Positions 2,686-13,138 of a stretch of 64,000 bases of DNA are shown here, one piece after another. Made by a program: the position numbers and the translations under genes. Within the stretch, counting starts at the first letter, position 1; each line of letters begins with the position of its first letter. Source of the stretch: an uncultured Nitrospirales bacterium. Lineage in GTDB: Bacteria; Hydrogenedentota; Hydrogenedentia; Hydrogenedentales; GCA-2746185. The notes beneath the pieces were generated by a model. That model did no database searches. It was given only the letters and a program-made list of their open reading frames with translations, and was not told where the DNA came from. Where the stretch lies: NCBI GenBank assembly GCA_964467615.1, contig CAYXRK010000001.1, positions 14,008 to 78,007 of the forward strand, read 5' to 3'.

Positions 2686-5600
2686 ATGGCGGGTGCGTCG
2701 CGAAAACGTCGTCGGCTAATTGCTGCGCTAGCGGTGTTCGCGGCACTGGTGCCGCTCTGGCTAGTCGCCGAGCGGTATGTGCTTCGGGTAGATCGGTACC
2801 GGCCCGCGCTCGAAGACGCAATCGCCGGCGCAACCGGGCTGTCCGCCAGCATCGAGAGGATAGAGGCCCACCTCCTCCCCTGGCCGTACGTCGCGCTGGA
2901 AAACGTGACCGTCGGTTCGGGCGATTTTTGGGCGTTCGCGGAACGCATCGATGTTCGCGGAGAGTTGCGGGCCCTCGCGCGGGGGCGGCTCGAAATCGAT
3001 CTGGTGGAGGTGAAGCGGCTTTCGGTCGTGGTGCCGCCCGATCCGGACGACATTCGCGAGCGCGTAAACGTCCTCATCGACCACCTTACGGCCCCGTCAC
3101 AGGAGGAGCCGTGGTTTTCCGAGGTGTCGGTGATCAAGGTCGAGACCGAAGATGCGGGCGTTTATCTTAAGGGAGACGCCGAGCCCGCCGCAGTCATCAC
3201 GGTAACGGGCCGCGATGTTCTTTCGGACGCAGTGCAGACTCTGATCGAGGCGCGGCTGCCCGAATATGGCGCGGACGCACGAGCGTGGACGACGCTTAAC
3301 TTTACCCTCGCGGAGCAAAACGTTTTGGCGGTCTCGGGCGAGGGCTCATTCGAAGGATTGGAGCTCGCCTCGCTGCCGCTGGACGGTCTACCGCAAATTG
3401 TCATGCACGCAGGCTTCACGCTGTCGGGCGAAAACTTCGGGAGCATTGAAGCCGCGCTCACGGGGAACACTGCCTCCGTCGACACCGGACAGATGACCGG
3501 CGAATACGCCGGCGCGCTCTGGTGGAAGGACGAAGCGCTGACGTTGAACGATTTCACGTGGATCGGACCGGACGTCAATACCGCGCTCGACTTGACGCGC
3601 CATAAGGACGGACGCATTGTCGTTTCGGTGAAGCGATTCAGCGCGCGCGCCGGCGGACTAAGCGACATTCTCGCGGGCTTGAAGTTGAAGGACGCCGAAG
3701 TGACCGCGGGCCCGGACGCGTCGTTCGCCGCAACGGACCTGTTGTTCGCCCTGGAATCCGACGACACGATTCAATTCTCCCAGGGCAACGCCGAATTCTC
3801 GGGACTCGCCCTCGCACACGCCGACGAAGGCGAACTCGCGCACGGCGTGAAGGGCCACGTCACGATTACCGATGGGACGATAGCGGTCGAAGAACTCGTC
3901 GCCGAGGGCCTCGCGCTTCACGGCAACGTCACGCCGAACCCCGGCTGGACCACGTTCGCGCTCGATCTGTCCGGCAACGCCGATCTCGCCGCCGCACGCG
4001 TCGTCAGTCTCGTGTTTCCCGATTCGGTGCATGACGCCCAAGGCGTACTAGCGATAGACCGCATCGCGGGGACTTTTGATCGAAACGGCGCGCTTCCCGA
4101 CGATCTTGTCCTCACCGCGACGGTGAACGACGGTGCCTTTCGCGTCGAGTCCGAAGACTTCACTGCGGCTTTCGAAAGCGTGAACGTTCAAGTGCGGACG
4201 GACGGAAAGACCATCGCGACGGCGGCCTCCGCGGCTTCGCCCGAACTGGGCGCGATGCATCTCGACGGCCAGTATTCGGTCGCCGATCGCCTTTGGTCGG
4301 GCGCGACGACAATTGACGTACCGAAGGCCGCGACACACTTCATTGACGACGACGAGGTGTCCGCTCGGTTAGCGGGCCTGCTCGATCAGTATGGGACCGC
4401 CGAGTGGAAGACGGACGTCCAGTTTGCGGCCGAGGACGGGGACCCAATCGAGGTCCGCGTCTCTGGGGAAAATGCTCCTATGCTCAATGGCAAGGTACTC
4501 GTGGCAACCAACGAAGAACACACGCGGTTCGGCGATGTTCACGTCGAGACTGAACTCGCGTCGGACCGGTTGCCTCGCCTGCTTCCCGAGGGCATCCGCG
4601 CCGAGGGGCCCGTGACCGTCCGGTTCGACCGAGACGCCACCGCAGGCGAATTCACGGCGACCGCGAATCTTACCGGATGCACGCTAACGACCGAAGGCGA
4701 CGTTCAGAAGCGGTTCGGTGACGAACTTCTGATCGACCTGTCCGGCCAGGCCACGGAAGGAACGTGGCGCGCCGAGAAGGGCGCCCTGACGTGCCTCGGA
4801 CAACAGTTGGACTTTATTATCGAGGACAAACGGGTCGTCGCGCCGCATTTCGACATCGCCGCCGTGGCATGGGCACGGTTGCTGCCCGAGGGCGCGTCGG
4901 CGCATGGGAGGATTTTCGGGAAGGCGGCGTTCAATCCATTCGAGGCAGACCTGACGTTCCATGATCAGGGATTTCGACTCGATGACGAGATCGTGATCGA
5001 GCGCATCAACGGTAACGTCTCGATCTCCGGTCCGTATTTAACATGCCGCGATCTGAAAATCGAAGGCGCACGTTCGGATTGCACGGTCAATGCAGGCCGC
5101 TCGGACGGCGTCTGGCGTGGCGAAGTCCGCGGCCGGACATTGGATGTGAACGCATTCGCGCCGCTCGCGGGAGCGCTTATTGGACTCGCACAATCCGGCG
5201 GGAGTCCGAAGGACGCCACGGAAAAGAGTGAGGCCGATCCCTTCGTCGGCGACTTCAACATTGCCCTGGATCAAGTGTTCTTCCGTAAGGGACGGCTGGA
5301 CAAATTCACGGCGATGGTAAACGCGCGGGAGCAAGGCGTGTTCGTGAAGGACATCCGCTGCACGCCGTACAGCGGGTCGCTGACCGGCACAATAGATTGG
5401 GTGCCTTCGAACGCGGACGAACACGAAGTGCGCGTCAGTCTCGCCTTTGACGGGGCAGACTCGCGCATCGTCGACGAGATCCTTATGAACGACGAACGAG
5501 GGTTGGACGGAATTTTCTCGGGAACGCTCGACTTCAGTTCGCCCGCTATCGAGGGCAAGGAGTCCGTCAAACGCGCAAACGGCCGCGCAGAGATTCGGGC

Positions 5601-6006
5601 GGCAAACGGTAGTCTGGGAAAAATGGGCTGGGCCACGAAACTCATTTCGGTGTTGAAGACAACGGAAATCCTCGCGTTCCGGAGGCCGGAGTTCCGCGAT
5701 AAAGGGTTGACCTACGACGACTTATCCGGTAGGCTGGAGATGGTGAATGGCGTGCTGACGCTGCGGGACGTGAAGCTCGAAAGCCCCTCCTACTCGATGA
5801 CCGCCAGGGGAACGGTGGATTTCCCGCAAGACCGGTCGGACGTCGTGGTTCGGGTGCAGCCGCTCGAGAATATCAACCGGACCGTCGGTCGAATACCGAT
5901 TATCGGAGATGCGATTCGTCAAGTGACCAAAGTCGCCCGGGTGCGCGTGAATATCACAGGGTCGCCGTACGACACATCGCAGAGCGCGCAGGAAGACAAG
6001 GAATAG
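2686..6006 (+). CDS. AsmA-family / YhdP-like giant envelope protein (1105 aa) with N-terminal membrane anchor
   Basis: N-terminal TM helix followed by an AsmA-like N-domain. The C-terminus (PLENINRTVGRIPIIGDAIRQVTKVARVRVNITGSPYD) resembles the AsmA_2/YhdP C-terminal motif. The stop TAG is immediately followed by the ATG of the next gene. Confidence 0.55.
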   Translation: MAGASRKRRRLIAALAVFAALVPLWLVAERYVLRVDRYRPALEDAIAGATGLSASIERIEAHLLPWPYVALENVTVGSGDFWAFAERIDVRGELRALARGRLEIDLVEVKRLSVVVPPDPDDIRERVNVLIDHLTAPSQEEPWFSEVSVIKVETEDAGVYLKGDAEPAAVITVTGRDVLSDAVQTLIEARLPEYGADARAWTTLNFTLAEQNVLAVSGEGSFEGLELASLPLDGLPQIVMHAGFTLSGENFGSIEAALTGNTASVDTGQMTGEYAGALWWKDEALTLNDFTWIGPDVNTALDLTRHKDGRIVVSVKRFSARAGGLSDILAGLKLKDAEVTAGPDASFAATDLLFALESDDTIQFSQGNAEFSGLALAHADEGELAHGVKGHVTITDGTIAVEELVAEGLALHGNVTPNPGWTTFALDLSGNADLAAARVVSLVFPDSVHDAQGVLAIDRIAGTFDRNGALPDDLVLTATVNDGAFRVESEDFTAAFESVNVQVRTDGKTIATAASAASPELGAMHLDGQYSVADRLWSGATTIDVPKAATHFIDDDEVSARLAGLLDQYGTAEWKTDVQFAAEDGDPIEVRVSGENAPMLNGKVLVATNEEHTRFGDVHVETELASDRLPRLLPEGIRAEGPVTVRFDRDATAGEFTATANLTGCTLTTEGDVQKRFGDELLIDLSGQATEGTWRAEKGALTCLGQQLDFIIEDKRVVAPHFDIAAVAWARLLPEGASAHGRIFGKAAFNPFEADLTFHDQGFRLDDEIVIERINGNVSISGPYLTCRDLKIEGARSDCTVNAGRSDGVWRGEVRGRTLDVNAFAPLAGALIGLAQSGGSPKDATEKSEADPFVGDFNIALDQVFFRKGRLDKFTAMVNAREQGVFVKDIRCTPYSGSLTGTIDWVPSNADEHEVRVSLAFDGADSRIVDEILMNDERGLDGIFSGTLDFSSPAIEGKESVKRANGRAEIRAANGSLGKMGWATKLISVLKTTEILAFRRPEFRDKGLTYDDLSGRLEMVNGVLTLRDVKLESPSYSMTARGTVDFPQDRSDVVVRVQPLENINRTVGRIPIIGDAIRQVTKVARVRVNITGSPYDTSQSAQEDKE

Positions 6007-6945
6007 ATGAGCACAGCGACACTAACGGGCCCTCCCCGGATTCAAATCCAGACGCAGTCGGGCTGCAACGGTCGTTGCGTTTTTTGTCCGAACGAGGCCG
6101 TGCTCAACTCCGACCTGTCCCAGGGGCGCATGCCGCCGGCGCGGTTTCAGCAGATCATCGATGAACTGGCGAAGACGCCCCCTCGGCGCGTGAGTCTGTA
6201 TTTGCAAAACGAACCCATGCTGGACAAGCGGCTGCCAGACTTCTGCCGGTACGTCACCGAGCGCATTCCGTCGGCCTCCACCCTGGTGACGACCAACGGC
6301 ACCTATCTGAGCGAGGCCAGCGCCGCCGCGTTGATCGGCGGGGGGCTCAAACGCATCAAGGTCAGCATTCAATCCCTGGTTCCTGAACGCAACATGGACA
6401 TCATGGGGAAAGTCTGTGATTCGGACAAGGTCGTGAAGAACGTCTTGGGCGTGCGCAAGGTCATGAAGGAAATGCGGGCGAAGGCGTTTGATCTGCGCGT
6501 GTCAACCATCGTCACCGCCATGAACGAAGACGAAATCGGCGATATGCACAGGTTCTGGAAATCGCATGGCGTGAAGATGGTCACGTCCGCGCTCGAGAAC
6601 CGCGGCGGCAACATCGCCAACGCGCTCGAGATGAACGGCGCTGAGATGCGCACGCGAAGCGACTGCATCCGCCCGCACCGCGAGATGTGCGTGCTGTTCA
6701 ACGGCGACGCCGTACTTTGCTGCGTTGACTGGCACCGTGTCGAGGTCGTCGGCAACGTCTTCCAAGACGGCGTAGCGAACGTGTGGAACGGCGCGCGCCT
6801 TCAGCACATCCGCAAGGCGTTCAAAGAGGGCAATACTCAGGCGCTTCCGGAAATCTGCGTCAATTGCACCGAGAGCGCGTGTTCGGCGAAGCAGCGCAAG
6901 GGCTGGCCTTCATTCTTCAGGAACGTTTTCGCGCATGCGGGGTAA
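6007..6945 (+). CDS. radical SAM enzyme with C-terminal SPASM/twitch-like Cys cluster
   Basis: CNGRCVFC (CX3CX2C) at residues 20-27. C-terminal C..C..CC ... CVNCTESAC cysteine cluster. Start codon abuts the AsmA-like stop. Confidence 0.75.
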   Translation: MSTATLTGPPRIQIQTQSGCNGRCVFCPNEAVLNSDLSQGRMPPARFQQIIDELAKTPPRRVSLYLQNEPMLDKRLPDFCRYVTERIPSASTLVTTNGTYLSEASAAALIGGGLKRIKVSIQSLVPERNMDIMGKVCDSDKVVKNVLGVRKVMKEMRAKAFDLRVSTIVTAMNEDEIGDMHRFWKSHGVKMVTSALENRGGNIANALEMNGAEMRTRSDCIRPHREMCVLFNGDAVLCCVDWHRVEVVGNVFQDGVANVWNGARLQHIRKAFKEGNTQALPEICVNCTESACSAKQRKGWPSFFRNVFAHAG

Positions 6946-6999
6946 TCTACTTGGGTACGTTGCGGTAAGTCGTCAATCCGACAAGGAGTATCATCAACT

Positions 7000-7164
7000 A
7001 TGATATCGATTAGTCAATTGCAACGCTTGGCCAACCTTTTCCTGCAACAGGTTGTTGGCCTCGGAGACGACCTCCTGGGCCTGCTCCAGTTTCGTTTCTA
7101 CGAGCTTCTCGGCGAACTGTTTGCCATCATCGCGCCACTCATTGGCTACACGCCCCCGCAATAG
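7000..7164 (+). CDS. small ORF A (54 aa) with AAGGAG Shine-Dalgarno: MISISQLQRLANLFLQQVVGLGDDLLGLLQFRFYELLGELFAIIAPLIGYTPPQ
   Basis: Not in the ORF track (<60 aa). AAGGAG sits 11 nt upstream of the ATG. High GC3. Lies directly downstream of the rSAM/SPASM gene. Paralogous in composition to ORF B. Confidence 0.4.
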   Translation: MISISQLQRLANLFLQQVVGLGDDLLGLLQFRFYELLGELFAIIAPLIGYTPPQ

Positions 7165-7191
7165 ACGTAGGCCGGAAAAGGAGTAGCCACA

Positions 7192-7317
7192 ATGGTTCGC
7201 GACCAAATTTTTGCCGCCATCCAAAGTTTCATCGACGACATTACCGTCTTCATCGCCGATTTTCTGGACACGGTGCTAAACGATCTCCTGCCCAATTTCC
7301 TGCCCTTCGACTTCTAG
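7192..7317 (+). CDS. small ORF B (41 aa) with AAAGGAG Shine-Dalgarno: MVRDQIFAAIQSFIDDITVFIADFLDTVLNDLLPNFLPFDF
   Basis: GGAG 8 nt upstream of the ATG. GC3 about 70%. Acidic/hydrophobic with no Cys. Tandem to ORF A. Confidence 0.4.
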   Translation: MVRDQIFAAIQSFIDDITVFIADFLDTVLNDLLPNFLPFDF

Positions 7318-7443
7318 AAGCTATTCCAAAACCAAGTCCCAATCGGTTCGAGGGTACAGAGTCTTCGAAATCGCCCAGGAATTGGGCCGGAGATATTCTT
7401 CGGTTCGCCGCCGCTCGTCTGATAGTGGTAGGTTACTCGCACG

Positions 7444-8898
7444 ATGAATCGTCGCGCGTTTCTTCAATCCGCCGCCGCGAGCGCCTTCGCCGCCTCGGCC
7501 CTTGGCGCAAAAGGCGCCTGCCGCGCCCCAGCCGGATCGCCTGCGCCGAATTCGGGACCCACCCTTCCGATCATCGACGCGCACTGCCACATCTTCAACG
7601 CCTCCGACCTCGCCATCGAAGGCTTCATCAAACACGCCGTCCTGCATGCCTCGGGCGATCACCCCCTCGACGCCGCCATCGCCGCGCTCGACTTCCAACT
7701 CCAACGCGCGGCACCCTCCTTCGAGGAAGAGAATGCTTTGCTCGACGCGGTGCTTTGCGGAGATCCCATCCCCGAAGAATTTAATCGCACGGGACCATCA
7801 ATCGAAGATATCGACAACTTCCTCGAGCACCTCGCCAAGTCCCGCCCCGATCTGATTCGCGGCGTTGACAAACAGGACGTCCCGCACTTCGGCGAGGGCG
7901 TCCTGTTCAACGCCTTGCGCTGGGCCTGGATTCTCACGCGTCATCGTCTCCACATCATGCAACTCATGTTCAACACCTTCCCCGAAGTCGGGCTTTTCGT
8001 CCCTGCAATCGTCGATATGGACCTCTGGCTTTCGGATCACGCCGAGACATCAATTCCCAATCAAATTCGGCTATACGAAAAACTGATCCGGATTAGCCAA
8101 GGCCGCATCATGCCGCTCGCACCCTTCGATCCCTGGCGGCAAGTCAAAGCCGAACGCGCCGGTACCGATACGCCCCTCGAGTGGATCCAAGACGCCGTAC
8201 TCCACCGCGGTTTTGCCGGCGTAAAACTTTATCCGACGATGGGCTTTCGGGCGGAGGGCAACGCCGAATTGCGGCCCCGGTGGTTCTACCGCCCGCTCGA
8301 TTCCGCGCTCGAAGAACTCTACGAATGGTGCCAACAAGAACGCGTACCCATTTTGGCGCACGCAAACGCTTCGTGGGGATCCGAACGAGGGTTCGAGGAA
8401 CGCGCCGGCCCGGAATACTGGCGGCGCGCACTCGAACGGTTTCCGGAACTCCGAATCAGTTTTGGGCACTTCGGCGGCGACAATGACCTACTGTCACGCG
8501 GGATGGACAGCCGATGTTGGGACTTCGCGAATCTCATGCAAGAGTATCCAAACGCGTTCGCGGACATAGGTTTCCACGACATCGGGTTTCCCTCGACGCG
8601 CGAGTGCGACGTCGAGAAGTACTTCGCCTTGATGCGTGAACTCGCGGCACAATTTCCGGCTGCGATTGACCGCATCATGTACGGCAGCGATTGGCACATG
8701 ATCGTGCAAACATCAGGAAACGACCAATACTTCACGACCACCTTCGAGCGCTTCGCCTCCCACTGGCCCGAAGCCCAGTCCGGCGTCTTTAACGCGAACG
8801 CGCGCCGATGGCTCGATCTCGACGACACGCAATCCACAGCCCGTCAACGACTCGACGCCTTCTACTCCACGCGAGGAATCACACCAAGCTGTACGTAA
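7444..8898 (+). CDS. amidohydrolase-2 (TIM-barrel metal-dependent hydrolase) family protein with Tat signal peptide
   Basis: N-terminal MNRRAFLQSAAASAFAASA (twin-arginine motif). IIDAHCHIF metal-binding motif typical of the amidohydrolase_2 family. Confidence 0.55.
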   Translation: MNRRAFLQSAAASAFAASALGAKGACRAPAGSPAPNSGPTLPIIDAHCHIFNASDLAIEGFIKHAVLHASGDHPLDAAIAALDFQLQRAAPSFEEENALLDAVLCGDPIPEEFNRTGPSIEDIDNFLEHLAKSRPDLIRGVDKQDVPHFGEGVLFNALRWAWILTRHRLHIMQLMFNTFPEVGLFVPAIVDMDLWLSDHAETSIPNQIRLYEKLIRISQGRIMPLAPFDPWRQVKAERAGTDTPLEWIQDAVLHRGFAGVKLYPTMGFRAEGNAELRPRWFYRPLDSALEELYEWCQQERVPILAHANASWGSERGFEERAGPEYWRRALERFPELRISFGHFGGDNDLLSRGMDSRCWDFANLMQEYPNAFADIGFHDIGFPSTRECDVEKYFALMRELAAQFPAAIDRIMYGSDWHMIVQTSGNDQYFTTTFERFASHWPEAQSGVFNANARRWLDLDDTQSTARQRLDAFYSTRGITPSCT

Positions 8899-10307: not shown

Positions 10308-11687
10308 ATGACACAGATTCTCCCCGATCCCACCAAGCGCGCTCTCCTATTCGCAGGCGGCGAATGGTCATACGCAGACCTCCATGCCCGCGTCGCCTGG
10401 GCGTCCGAACGCCTCCGCGATCGCGGCCTGCGGCCCGGTGACCGCCTCGTCATCAGTCTGCCTGCGGGAGTCGAAGCCGTCGTCTGGCTCTTGGCCGCGC
10501 TCGAGGCCCGCGCCGTGGTTTGCCCCGTCAATCCCAAACTCCCTCACCACGCCCTCGGCGATATCCTCAAGCGCCTCCGCGCGAAACATATCGTCCAGCA
10601 GGCTGACTCCGCCATCGAGGGCGAAATATCTGGCGTCGGCGTTCTCGAGTTCAGCGATGAAGAACTCGCCCGGCCAACCATCGTCGTCGCGACCTCCGGC
10701 AGCACAGCCGAACCGAAGCTCGCCGTGCTGTCGCTCCGAAATTTCCTCGCGAACGCCGACGCCTCGAACCGGAACATCCCCATCGCACCCGGCGACGCGT
10801 GGCTCCTCTCGCTGCCCCTGTTCCACATCTCCGGTCTCGGCATCGCCTTTCGGTGCACGCAGGCCCGCGCGACGATTACCGTGCCGCATCCCGATCAATC
10901 GTTGGCAAGCGCGATCACCGAATTCGGCGTAACGCATGCGTCGCTGGTTTCAACGCAACTGTACCGCCTGCTCGAATCCGAGGAGGGCCGCGCCGCCCTA
11001 TCCGGCCTCAATGCCGTGCTGCTCGGCGGCAGCGCCATCCCGGAATCGCTGATTCGGCGTGCGGTCGAGCGCGGCGTCCCAATCCACACCACCTACGGCC
11101 TCACCGAAAGCGCCGGTCAAGTCACCACCACGCCTCCGGTCTCTGACCTCGAAACGCTGCTGAGCTCGGGGCGCCCCCTCGCCGAGAGCACCATCCGCAT
11201 CGCCGCATCCGGCGAGATCGAAATCGCTGGCCCCACCCTATTCCTCGGCTACCTACAACCCAACGGCAGCATCACCCGGCCCGCCACGCCGGACGGTTGG
11301 TTTCCGACGGGCGACCTCGGCCGCTTCGACGACCACGGCCTACTCCACGTCACCGGCCGCCGCGACAATATGTTCATCAGCGGCGGCGAAAACATCCAGC
11401 CCGAAGAAATCGAACGTGCCCTCGCACAGATCGACGGCGTCGCGCAAGCGATCATCGTCCCCGTCCCAAGCGCCGAATATGGCCACCGCCCCGCCGCGTT
11501 CGTCCAATTGAGGGACCAAACCGCCCTCGAACCCGAAAGACTACGCGCGGCCTTGCGCGAATTGTTGCCAAGCTACAAACTACCCGACGCGTTTTTCGAC
11601 TGGCCGGAAGATCTCACCCGCGACGGCCTCAAACCCAGCCGTGCGGACTTCGCGAAACGGGCGCAGATGCTCGGCGGCAATCACTGA
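10308..11687 (+). CDS. AMP-dependent synthetase/ligase (MenE-like o-succinylbenzoate-CoA ligase family)
   Basis: [12 protein letters not shown]-binding motif, YGLTE and [17 protein letters not shown] motifs. About 459 aa, the size of MenE. menB is present elsewhere in the window. Confidence 0.7.
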
Positions 11688-11758
11688 AATGTAGCAACGC
11701 GCACGTTGCTCCGGGGCCCCTCTTGCGCGTATCGTCTCGCTTTTCGTCAGGACGGGTA

Positions 11759-13138
11759 ATGGCAGTTCATAGGATTAAAAAGGGCCTCGATCTGCCCATC
11801 TCGGGCGAGCCCGAGCAGGCCGTTCGACCAGGCGCGGCCGTGACGCGGGTCGCGCTTTTGGCGGACGACTACCCCGGCATGAAGCCGACGATGCTCGTCG
11901 AGCCGGGCGACGCGGTCAAGCGCGGCCAGGAGATTTTTGAAGACAAGAAGAACCCCGGCGTCGTGTACACGTCCCCGGGAGCGGGCGCCGTTCTCGCGGT
12001 GAATCGTGGTGAGAAGCGTGCGTTCCAATCCGTCGTAATCGAGCTAAGCGCCGCCGAACGCAAAGGCGCGCCCGCGGCGGACGAGTTCCAAGAATTCGAA
12101 CACTATACCGGCGGCGGCCCCAACGCGCTCGACGCCGCGCAAATCCGGGCGCTGCTGATCGAGTCGGGCCAATGGACGGCTTTCCGCACACGCCCGATGA
12201 GCAAAGTCCCCGCCGTCGATTCGACACCTGCCGCGATCTTCGTTACGGCGATGGACACCAATCCGCTCGCGCCGTCGGTCGACGTCGTGTTCAACGAAAA
12301 CAAGGACGCATTCAGCGCGGGTCTCGGGGTCGTGTCGAAGCTCACGACCGGGCCGACGTATTTGTGCCGCGCGCCCGCCGGCGCCGTCTCTTCAAATGGA
12401 CACCAGAACATCCGCGTCGAAGAGTTCAAAGGCGTGCATCCCGCAGGCAACGCTGGGACGCACATTCACATCCTCGAAGGCGCGGGCCGCTCCCACGTGG
12501 TCTGGCATATCGGCCTTCAAGACGTGATCGCCATCGGCCATTTGTTCAAGACAGGTCGCCTCTACGTGGACCGCATCATCGCGCTGGGCGGTCCGCAAGT
12601 CTCAAAGCCGCGCCTCCTGCGAACTCGCACAGGCGCATCCACTGATCAATTGGCCACCGGGGAACTGAAGGAAGGCGAGAACCGCGTCATTTCCGGCTCG
12701 GTGCTGTCCGGTCGATCCGCGCACGGCGACGTCTTCGGATACTTGGGCCGTTTTCACCAGCAAATCTCCGTCCTGCGCGAAGGCCGCGAGCGCGAGTTCC
12801 TCGGTTGGCTCACGCCGGGCGGCGATAGGTTCTCCGTCACCCGCTCGTTTCTATCGAGTCTCTTCCGCGGCCGCCGCTTCGATTTCACGACGAGCACAAT
12901 GGGCAGTCCGCGCGCGATGGTGCCGATTGGCCTCTACGAAAAAGTCATGCCGCTCGACATCTTGGCGACCTATCTCTTGCGGGCGCTCATCATGGGCGAC
13001 GTCGAGCGCGCCGAACAGTTGGGCTGCCTCGAACTCGACGAAGAAGACCTCGCGTTGTGCTCGTTCGTGTGTCCGGGCAAGACCGAGTACGGCCCCTTGT
13101 TGCGCGCCGTGCTCATGCAGATCGAGAAGGAAGGCTGA
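11759..13138 (+). CDS. nqrA: Na+-translocating NADH:quinone oxidoreductase subunit A
   Basis: [18 protein letters not shown]... N-terminus typical of NqrA. The ORF-track upstream extension is Arg-rich and spurious. First gene of the nqrABCDEF series. Confidence 0.85.

Follow-up and report, generated by a model that had tools for sequence, protein, structure and literature searches.

A candidate cell-envelope operon of Hydrogenedentota with a BtrN-like radical SAM enzyme, an AsmA-like protein and two new microprotein families

AsmA-like proteins have recently been recognised as the bridges along which phospholipid reaches the outer membrane; outside E. coli, to our knowledge, hardly anything has been learned of the enzymes or small proteins that act together with them. 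In E. coli, the small proteins of the ydbH-ynbE-ydbL operon are encoded 3′ of an AsmA-like lipid-bridge gene (PMC11126948, PMC13464000). Among radical S-adenosylmethionine (rSAM) enzymes, SPASM proteins carry the seven-Cys motif CX9-15GX4C-gap-CX2CX5CX3C-gap-C and two auxiliary clusters (PMC6231123). The Twitch domain of BtrN carries one [4Fe-4S] cluster, fully ligated by four Cys residues (PMC6231123, PMC9012708). EpeE has one auxiliary cluster in an extended Twitch domain and no RiPP recognition element (RRE; RiPP, ribosomally synthesised peptide with post-translational modifications); it modifies the adjacent peptide EpeX, and a free Cys is its H-atom donor (PMC13012085). The epeXEPAB operon encodes the epipeptide (PMC12871923). 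We analysed a 64,000-nucleotide stretch (hereafter the window) of contig CAYXRK010000001.1 from an uncultured bacterium of Candidatus Hydrogenedentota (GCA_964467615.1, positions 14,008 to 78,007), in which genes for an AsmA/YhdP-like protein and a 312-aa rSAM enzyme and two small open reading frames (ORFs), A and B, follow one another on the same strand, 0, 54 and 27 nt apart. A reading made from the sequence alone (hereafter the sequence-only reading) had taken the rSAM gene and the two ORFs for a candidate RiPP-like or peptide-modification locus, and had offered small envelope proteins acting with the AsmA-like gene as the alternative. Our literature search found no paper that links rSAM enzymes with AsmA-like genes or describes this rSAM family. 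We found that ORFs A and B are genes of two new families, and our tentative reading of the locus is that of an envelope operon.

ORFs A and B are protein-coding genes of two new families

ORFs A and B are protein-coding genes under purifying selection. Two metagenome contigs, L015 (Logan SRR22387992) and L101 (JGI), carry rSAM genes 94% identical to that of the window. The order, reading frame, stop positions and GGAG sites of A and B were kept in both contigs, and the spacers between and after the two ORFs had diverged with indels. The differences between the window and L015 numbered 6/0/15 at codon positions 1/2/3 in A and 2/0/10 in B, and thus fell mainly at position 3. Nei-Gojobori dN/dS against L015 and L101 was 0.05-0.11 for A and 0.02-0.11 for B, similar to the values for the rSAM gene in the same set (0.03-0.05).

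The lengths and Shine-Dalgarno sites that the sequence-only reading had given for the two ORFs are all present in the sequence (Table 1), and the composition it described was also found. Neither product contains Cys or Lys. Leu makes up 13 of the 54 residues of A, and Asp and Phe 7 each of the 41 residues of B. GC3 was high as stated, 0.67 in A and 0.71 in B, against a total GC of 0.54 and 0.50; the totals are low because GC2 is only 0.22-0.30.

No Rfam family matched positions 6800-7500. RNA folding of the spacer 3′ of ORF B (7300-7450), which covered this spacer and not the ORFs, gave a structure no more stable than those of shuffled sequences. Promoter and terminator scans of the small-ORF region revealed nothing above background. 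No terminator-like site was found within the rSAM-to-ORF A spacer, in a scan that overall was at background (7 sites found, 7.0 expected). An antisense ORF (6994-7224, minus strand) was considered as a gene and rejected as an artefact, because the substitutions hit its first codon position.

Direct tblastn and phmmer searches with A and B in the first 20 loci recovered only L015. Divergent relatives surfaced only when a composition filter was applied and more contigs, those of rSAM homologues at 67-73% identity, were added. In all, about 0.8 Mb of sequence was fetched, and hidden Markov models (HMMs) of A and B and the composition filter were run on 107 loci and the whole window; L107 and L108 are two contigs fetched after this 107-locus search. 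Pairs of A and B were found in the window, L015, L101, L103, L104 and L106, and single B-type ORFs in L018/19/20, L105, L108 and L006. These ORFs lie on the rSAM strand and start ~45-200 nt after the rSAM stop, in about 8 lineages. Neither the HMMs nor the independent composition filter detected any other A or B member in the 107 loci and the window. The small ORF of L108, found later, again lies directly after the rSAM gene. At the end of contig L107 (~1645-1706, ~100 nt past the rSAM stop) we observed an ORF that starts MEVTFDQLSR and resembles the N-termini of A and B; judging by this likeness, it is probably a cut-off member of the A/B type.

Type A members share the C-terminal motif F.[FL][LI]GEL[FY]A.IAP[LI][IF]G[YQ][TA]P.P, and type B members the N-terminal motif M..DQI.....F[LI].D. 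In 19,395 six-frame segments, leave-one-out HMMs of type A recovered the window group as well as L103 and L104, with E between 1e-6 and 1e-12, and gave no significant score to the first ORF of L106. Those of type B recovered L103 (4e-6), L018 (6.5e-4), L108 (8.5e-3) and L104 (0.026), and the window group ranked first, yet with an E of 0.32. L105, L106-A, L106-B and L006 were not recovered in this way and are counted by position and composition only. The HMMs recovered homologous ORFs in lineages in which dS is saturated. When the A and B profiles were compared with each other (hhalign), they aligned over nearly their full length with E 1.4e-4 and a probability of 53%, which suggests that the two families are probably paralogous and may have arisen by tandem duplication. 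A core ...F..DD(L/I)..., which the sequence-only reading had seen in both A and B, is unconserved even in the closest relative, where ORF A of L101 has LGHTLL.

All members of both types have a net charge of -1 to -6, a GRAVY of 0.7-1.5 and no Lys, and their hydrophobic moment peaks at 95-100 degrees across the whole length. Some type B members are hydrophobic enough to span a membrane (KD19 up to 2.3). AlphaFold2, run on ORF A with a three-sequence alignment, predicted a single helix from residue 4 to 44 (pLDDT 88) followed by the Pro-rich tail. The N-termini (MISISQLQRLA in A, MVRDQIFAAI in B), read by eye, show neither a signal peptide nor a lipobox: they lack a basic n-region, a hydrophobic core of the signal type and a lipobox Cys.

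A and B are two new microprotein families, and none of their members matched Pfam or NCBIfam. A word-indexed search of 5.8 billion proteins returned the three closest relatives only, P0121 (type B) and P0122 and P0123 (type A). An exhaustive search of 1.84 billion representatives with the type A profile returned its own cluster and two repeat proteins, P0124 and P0125. Both were rejected as relatives of A and taken for sums of weak repeat matches: Pfam gives no LysM match for any A member, and GDDLLGL, the stretch that matches, is unconserved in L101, L103 and L104. P0124 is a low-complexity protein. P0125 (215 aa, four LysM-like repeats) matches the type A profile through GD.L.GLAQ.FYG.GEL..II.AAN with an E of 7.5e-4 summed over the four repeats, and was judged a chance or compositional match.

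The rSAM enzyme and its Twitch domain

The enzyme matched Pfam Radical_SAM (E 1e-14) and SPASM (E 2e-11). The N-terminal CX3CX2C motif noted by the sequence-only reading was confirmed; it reads CNGRCVFC (C20/C24/C27) and is invariant in 35 orthologues. The C-terminal Cys cluster, which had been described as SPASM/twitch-like, is also present and is Twitch-like, but the seven-Cys SPASM motif is incomplete. Only CX12GX4C (C220...C238) and CX2C (C284, C287) are invariant, and CX5CX3C...C is missing. C220, C238, C239, C284 and C287 are likewise invariant in the 35 orthologues; C229 and C292 vary. No family cutoff of NCBIfam was reached: the best score was that of spiroSPASM (77 bits against a cutoff of 250), and PqqE, MftC, KxxxW, WgkB and the others were far below.

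A profile of the rSAM family was searched against all PDB sequences and matched BtrN at E 3e-28, in two stretches that cover both domains. Further matches were AbmM (8WM2; 1e-9), MoaA (2e-6), SuiB (1.7e-4) and EpeE/YydG (1.1); every peptide maturase in the PDB scored E of at least 1.7e-4. BtrN was also the first-ranked structural match in Foldseek. In the phmmer alignment, C220, C238, C284 and C287 fall on the four corresponding Cys residues of BtrN, and LENRGG falls on its LSNRGG. The enzyme is thus a Twitch enzyme of the BtrN type, with one predicted auxiliary cluster; in kind it resembles sugar-modifying enzymes.

Pfam gave no PqqD/RRE match in the enzyme or its neighbours, and the enzyme itself lacks an RRE because its core starts at about residue 12. 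The RRE is not universal among RiPP rSAM enzymes. Cys239 (window 6724-6726) directly follows the predicted ligand Cys238, at a position where BtrN has Phe. By analogy with Cys223 in EpeE, this residue could serve as an H-atom donor. At its C-terminus the enzyme has a basic, amphipathic tail (residues 294-312; 6886-6945; family consensus HRRGLKG...RL) with pLDDT <50. This tail may be a helix that binds the membrane, or the acidic microproteins may dock on it.

Conservation and layout of the gene block

The rSAM homologues come from metagenome-assembled genomes of Candidatus Hydrogenedentota. The rSAM tree places the small ORFs in a single clade, within which L016/17 and L102 have lost them; L006 lies outside this clade. 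The co-occurrence of the small ORFs with rSAM orthologues, which the sequence-only reading had proposed as a check, was observed within one clade. Orthologues without small ORFs span 45-73% identity and include two lineages within the peptide-bearing clade. At 45-64% identity, no small ORF followed the rSAM gene in any orthologue with enough downstream sequence, and the same holds for all such loci below 60%; in many cases the next gene starts <100 nt away, which leaves too little space for one. The rSAM gene of a peptide-less lineage (L102 compared with L001 and L002) had dN/dS of 0.06-0.11. Since the enzyme is under purifying selection without the peptides in this lineage, its function does not seem to depend on adjacent peptides.

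Two observations were made at the loci that have lost the small ORFs. L102 carries an inverted-repeat element (TTGTCATTGCGAGCGAAGCGAAGCAATC ... GCAATGACA) after the rSAM gene at 2286-2658, in place of the ORFs. L016 carries a 55-aa Cys-rich ORF (..CPCGLRTRVCPLPVPVC..) without a Shine-Dalgarno site at 6982-7149, within a 308-nt gap after the rSAM gene; the same ORF occurs in L017 at 2491-2658. It probably arose by chance.

Of the 49 loci whose sequence extends at least 1.5 kb upstream, 29 have the AsmA-like gene directly 5′ of the rSAM gene, and these reach down to 50% rSAM identity; in most related loci the two genes lie within ~140 nt of each other. All loci with small ORFs have the AsmA-like gene upstream, as do L107 and L108. 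The product of the gene 3′ of the small ORFs is an amidohydrolase in both the window and L015; L103, L104 and L106 have a secreted AXE1-like alpha/beta hydrolase at this place, and L018 has a 159-aa protein with no assigned family. Because this downstream gene differs between sub-clades, the stable block consists of the AsmA-like gene, the rSAM gene, A and B.

Distant rSAM homologues (35-39% identity) occur in a conserved housekeeping array together with genes for BamD (YfiO) and a GT4 glycosyltransferase. The GT4-rSAM pair beside BamD points to envelope glycoconjugate chemistry. The array was seen in L066, L069, L077, L081, L095, L097, L099 and L100, with the rSAM match at ~7001-7834 in most of them. 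Its order is fmt, rsmB, PASTA, rpe, BamD, GT4 and rSAM, then DUF72 (opposite strand), carD and NFACT; Pfam confirmed only BamD, GT4, DUF72, CarD and NFACT, and the other array genes are our own reading of cluster representatives.

Table 1. Features of the locus, with positions in the window
Feature	Position	Strand	Remarks
AsmA/YhdP-like protein, 1106 aa, N-terminal membrane anchor	2686..6006	+	First operon gene
rSAM enzyme, 312 aa, BtrN-type Twitch domain, one predicted auxiliary [4Fe-4S] site, cationic amphipathic C-terminal tail	6007..6945	+	
Shine-Dalgarno site of ORF A, AAGGAG	6983..6988	+	11 nt 5′ of ATG at 7000
Microprotein A (ORF A), 54 aa, long acidic amphipathic helix, then Pro-rich tail APLIGYTPPQ	7000..7164	+	
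Shine-Dalgarno site of ORF B, AAAGGAG	7177..7183	+	8 nt 5′ of ATG at 7192
Microprotein B (ORF B), 41 aa, amphipathic helix with net charge -6, motif M..DQI.....F[IL].D at the N-terminus	7192..7317	+	
Amidohydrolase_2 protein	7444..8898	+	Next gene, outside the conserved block; Pfam Amidohydro_2 E 1e-15

The TAG stop of the AsmA-like gene (6004-6006) abuts the rSAM ATG. The AsmA-like protein matched Pfam YhdP in its C-terminal part (E 4e-23) and AsmA in its N-terminal part (E 1.4e-6, below cutoff). The Amidohydrolase_2 protein begins with NRRAFL, which, reading the translation by eye, we take to be a twin-arginine (TAT) export signal. Other neighbours in the window are hemB, the nqr operon and genes for a CBS-domain protein and an AMP-dependent ligase. 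No protease, ABC exporter, immunity or other RiPP-type gene was found by Pfam and inspection of the neighbours within several kb of the rSAM gene, and there were no aminoglycoside-pathway genes among its neighbours (AsmA-like, amidohydrolase, hemB and nqr genes). At 11297-13138, the 613-aa ORF with a TTG start in the mechanical ORF list is over-extended, and the NqrA domains begin at ~11747; the nqr subunit genes continue to ~15.8 kb.

Function of the locus and comparison with known systems

We read the locus, with a probability of about 0.4, as a Hydrogenedentota cell-envelope operon in which the rSAM enzyme acts on a non-peptide precursor and the microproteins are clade-specific accessories. 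The 3′ end of this operon would consist of an AsmA/YhdP-like intermembrane lipid-transport protein, a BtrN-like rSAM enzyme and, in one clade, A and B. The enzyme would be cytoplasmic, and may be held at the inner membrane through its cationic amphipathic tail. Its chemistry would follow that of BtrN: abstraction of an H atom and a two-electron oxidation in which the auxiliary cluster accepts the electrons. The substrate, oxidised on the cytoplasmic side, would be an envelope precursor, e.g. a lipid, or a head group of the sugar or cyclitol kind, and the AsmA-like bridge would then move the lipid to the outer membrane. The microproteins may bind by their hydrophobic face to the basic tail of the enzyme or to the membrane-proximal part of the transporter, and would be accessory subunits rather than obligatory rSAM substrates. 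Since A and B carry no export signals, any partner role would be played in the cytoplasm or on the inner-membrane side. The envelope-operon reading takes up the alternative that the sequence-only reading had offered, small proteins acting with the AsmA-like gene. The synteny fits this alternative at least as well as it fits a RiPP locus, and we regard it as no less likely; neither idea is proven.

Several points speak against an envelope operon of this kind. The extra Cys at position 239 is invariant, and would not be needed for a BtrN-type cluster. About 40% of the rSAM orthologue loci have no adjoining AsmA-like gene. In genomes without small ORFs at the locus, the peptide genes could lie elsewhere. 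A and B have no signal peptides, and the way by which YnbE gets to the periplasmic groove of the AsmA-like protein is therefore closed to them. The rSAM family has no described substrate or product, and its assignment draws on sequence and gene context. In this rSAM subfamily, function cannot be read from sequence similarity (PMC6231123), and EpeE, with EpeX as its target, shows that a small peptide encoded next door can be the substrate of an RRE-less Twitch enzyme (PMC13012085).

The last of these points is the precedent for a RiPP-like locus, in which the Twitch enzyme would modify A and B, by C-alpha epimerisation as in EpeE/YydG or by a new C-H functionalisation of the Cys-free helices, and the hydrophobic peptides, once modified, would have their role in or at the envelope, perhaps after being handed to the AsmA-like groove. 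We consider such a locus unlikely. It would account for the tandem, divergent small ORFs that directly follow the rSAM gene in about 8 lineages and occur nowhere else in ~0.8 Mb, for the strong conservation of GEL[FY]A.IAP..G..P.P at the C-terminus of type A, and for the invariant C239 beside a predicted cluster ligand, if this residue donates an H atom. However, the rSAM family extends far beyond the peptides and is under purifying selection without them, even within the same clade, and its best sequence relatives are BtrN and AbmM, not EpeE. An RRE, a protease, an exporter and an immunity gene are all lacking at the locus, no RiPP-maturase cutoff of NCBIfam was reached, and the peptides are predicted to be helical nearly throughout, with no evident division into leader and core. 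Of the RiPP proposal of the sequence-only reading, what stands is that the small ORFs are real genes with a clade-limited co-occurrence; the full SPASM motif and the usual partner genes did not appear, BtrN proved to be the closest relative, and orthologues without peptides are under selection. Improbable to a still greater degree is one specific form of it, in which a BtrN-like enzyme without RRE, protease or exporter epimerises A and B through Cys239 or cross-links them at C-H positions, and the AsmA-like bridge delivers the peptides to the outer membrane. If true, it would represent a RiPP pathway wired to envelope lipid transport.

The patchy distribution of A and B, lost in L016/17 and L102, raises the question of whether they belong functionally to the block at all. 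They may instead be small proteins without a functional tie to it, amphipathic or active on membranes (a stress factor, for example, or a two-peptide toxin), which in one clade came to lie at the 3′ end of a well-expressed operon. The varying downstream neighbours, the membrane-spanning hydrophobicity of some type B members (KD19 up to 2.3) and the absence of detectable homology to known families agree with this. Nevertheless, the position and strand behind the rSAM gene were kept even where the rSAM sequences have diverged by >30% and another gene has taken the downstream place, no copy was found elsewhere in the loci or the window, and the rSAM-to-ORF A spacer holds no terminator-like site; we therefore regard mere passengers as quite unlikely. 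It is hardly credible that A and B are chance ORFs or a conserved non-coding RNA, in spite of their very short length, the absence of a database family and a yield of three relatives from 5.8 billion proteins. The substitutions at codon position 3, dN/dS of at most 0.11 and the recovery of homologous ORFs by leave-one-out HMMs where dS is saturated argue against this, as do the absence of an Rfam match and a 7300-7450 spacer that folds no better than shuffles.

In the envelope-operon reading, the rSAM gene abutting an AsmA-like gene and the BamD and GT4 neighbours of distant homologues point to radical chemistry, so far unrecognised, by which an uncultured phylum makes lipids or glycolipids of its envelope. 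The locus also calls for caution in genome mining: a Pfam SPASM match beside small ORFs is not enough to call a RiPP cluster.

Compared with SPASM RiPP maturases (SuiB, CteB, PqqE, MftC), which have the full seven-Cys motif, the enzyme studied here has an incomplete motif, no RRE and scores below the family cutoffs. EpeE/YydG, from the epipeptide system of Bacillus subtilis, is comparable in size (deposited chains of 316-344 residues, against 312 aa); however, its sequence similarity to our enzyme is negligible (E 1.1). The epeXEPAB operon also encodes a protease and an ABC transporter, genes that are absent near the rSAM gene here, and unlike EpeX, the peptides here are encoded 3′ of the enzyme, and most orthologous loci lack them. 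The small proteins of ydbH-ynbE-ydbL are likewise encoded 3′ of an AsmA-like gene. YnbE is a lipoprotein and YdbL is periplasmic, whereas A and B are acidic helices without signal peptide or lipobox; moreover, an rSAM gene lies in between, and there is no sequence similarity. BtrN, the 2-deoxy-scyllo-inosamine dehydrogenase of butirosin biosynthesis (PDB 4M7T/4M7S), is likewise a short rSAM enzyme with a Twitch domain, and shares the four auxiliary-cluster Cys positions and the (S/E)NRGG motif with our enzyme. Identity is only ~22-26%, and the rSAM family here differs in its extra invariant C239, a core that is ~40 residues longer, a basic C-terminal tail and a context that is AsmA-like and without aminoglycoside genes. 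We thus view the locus as a variant both of Twitch rSAM enzymes and of AsmA-like operons with small partner proteins.

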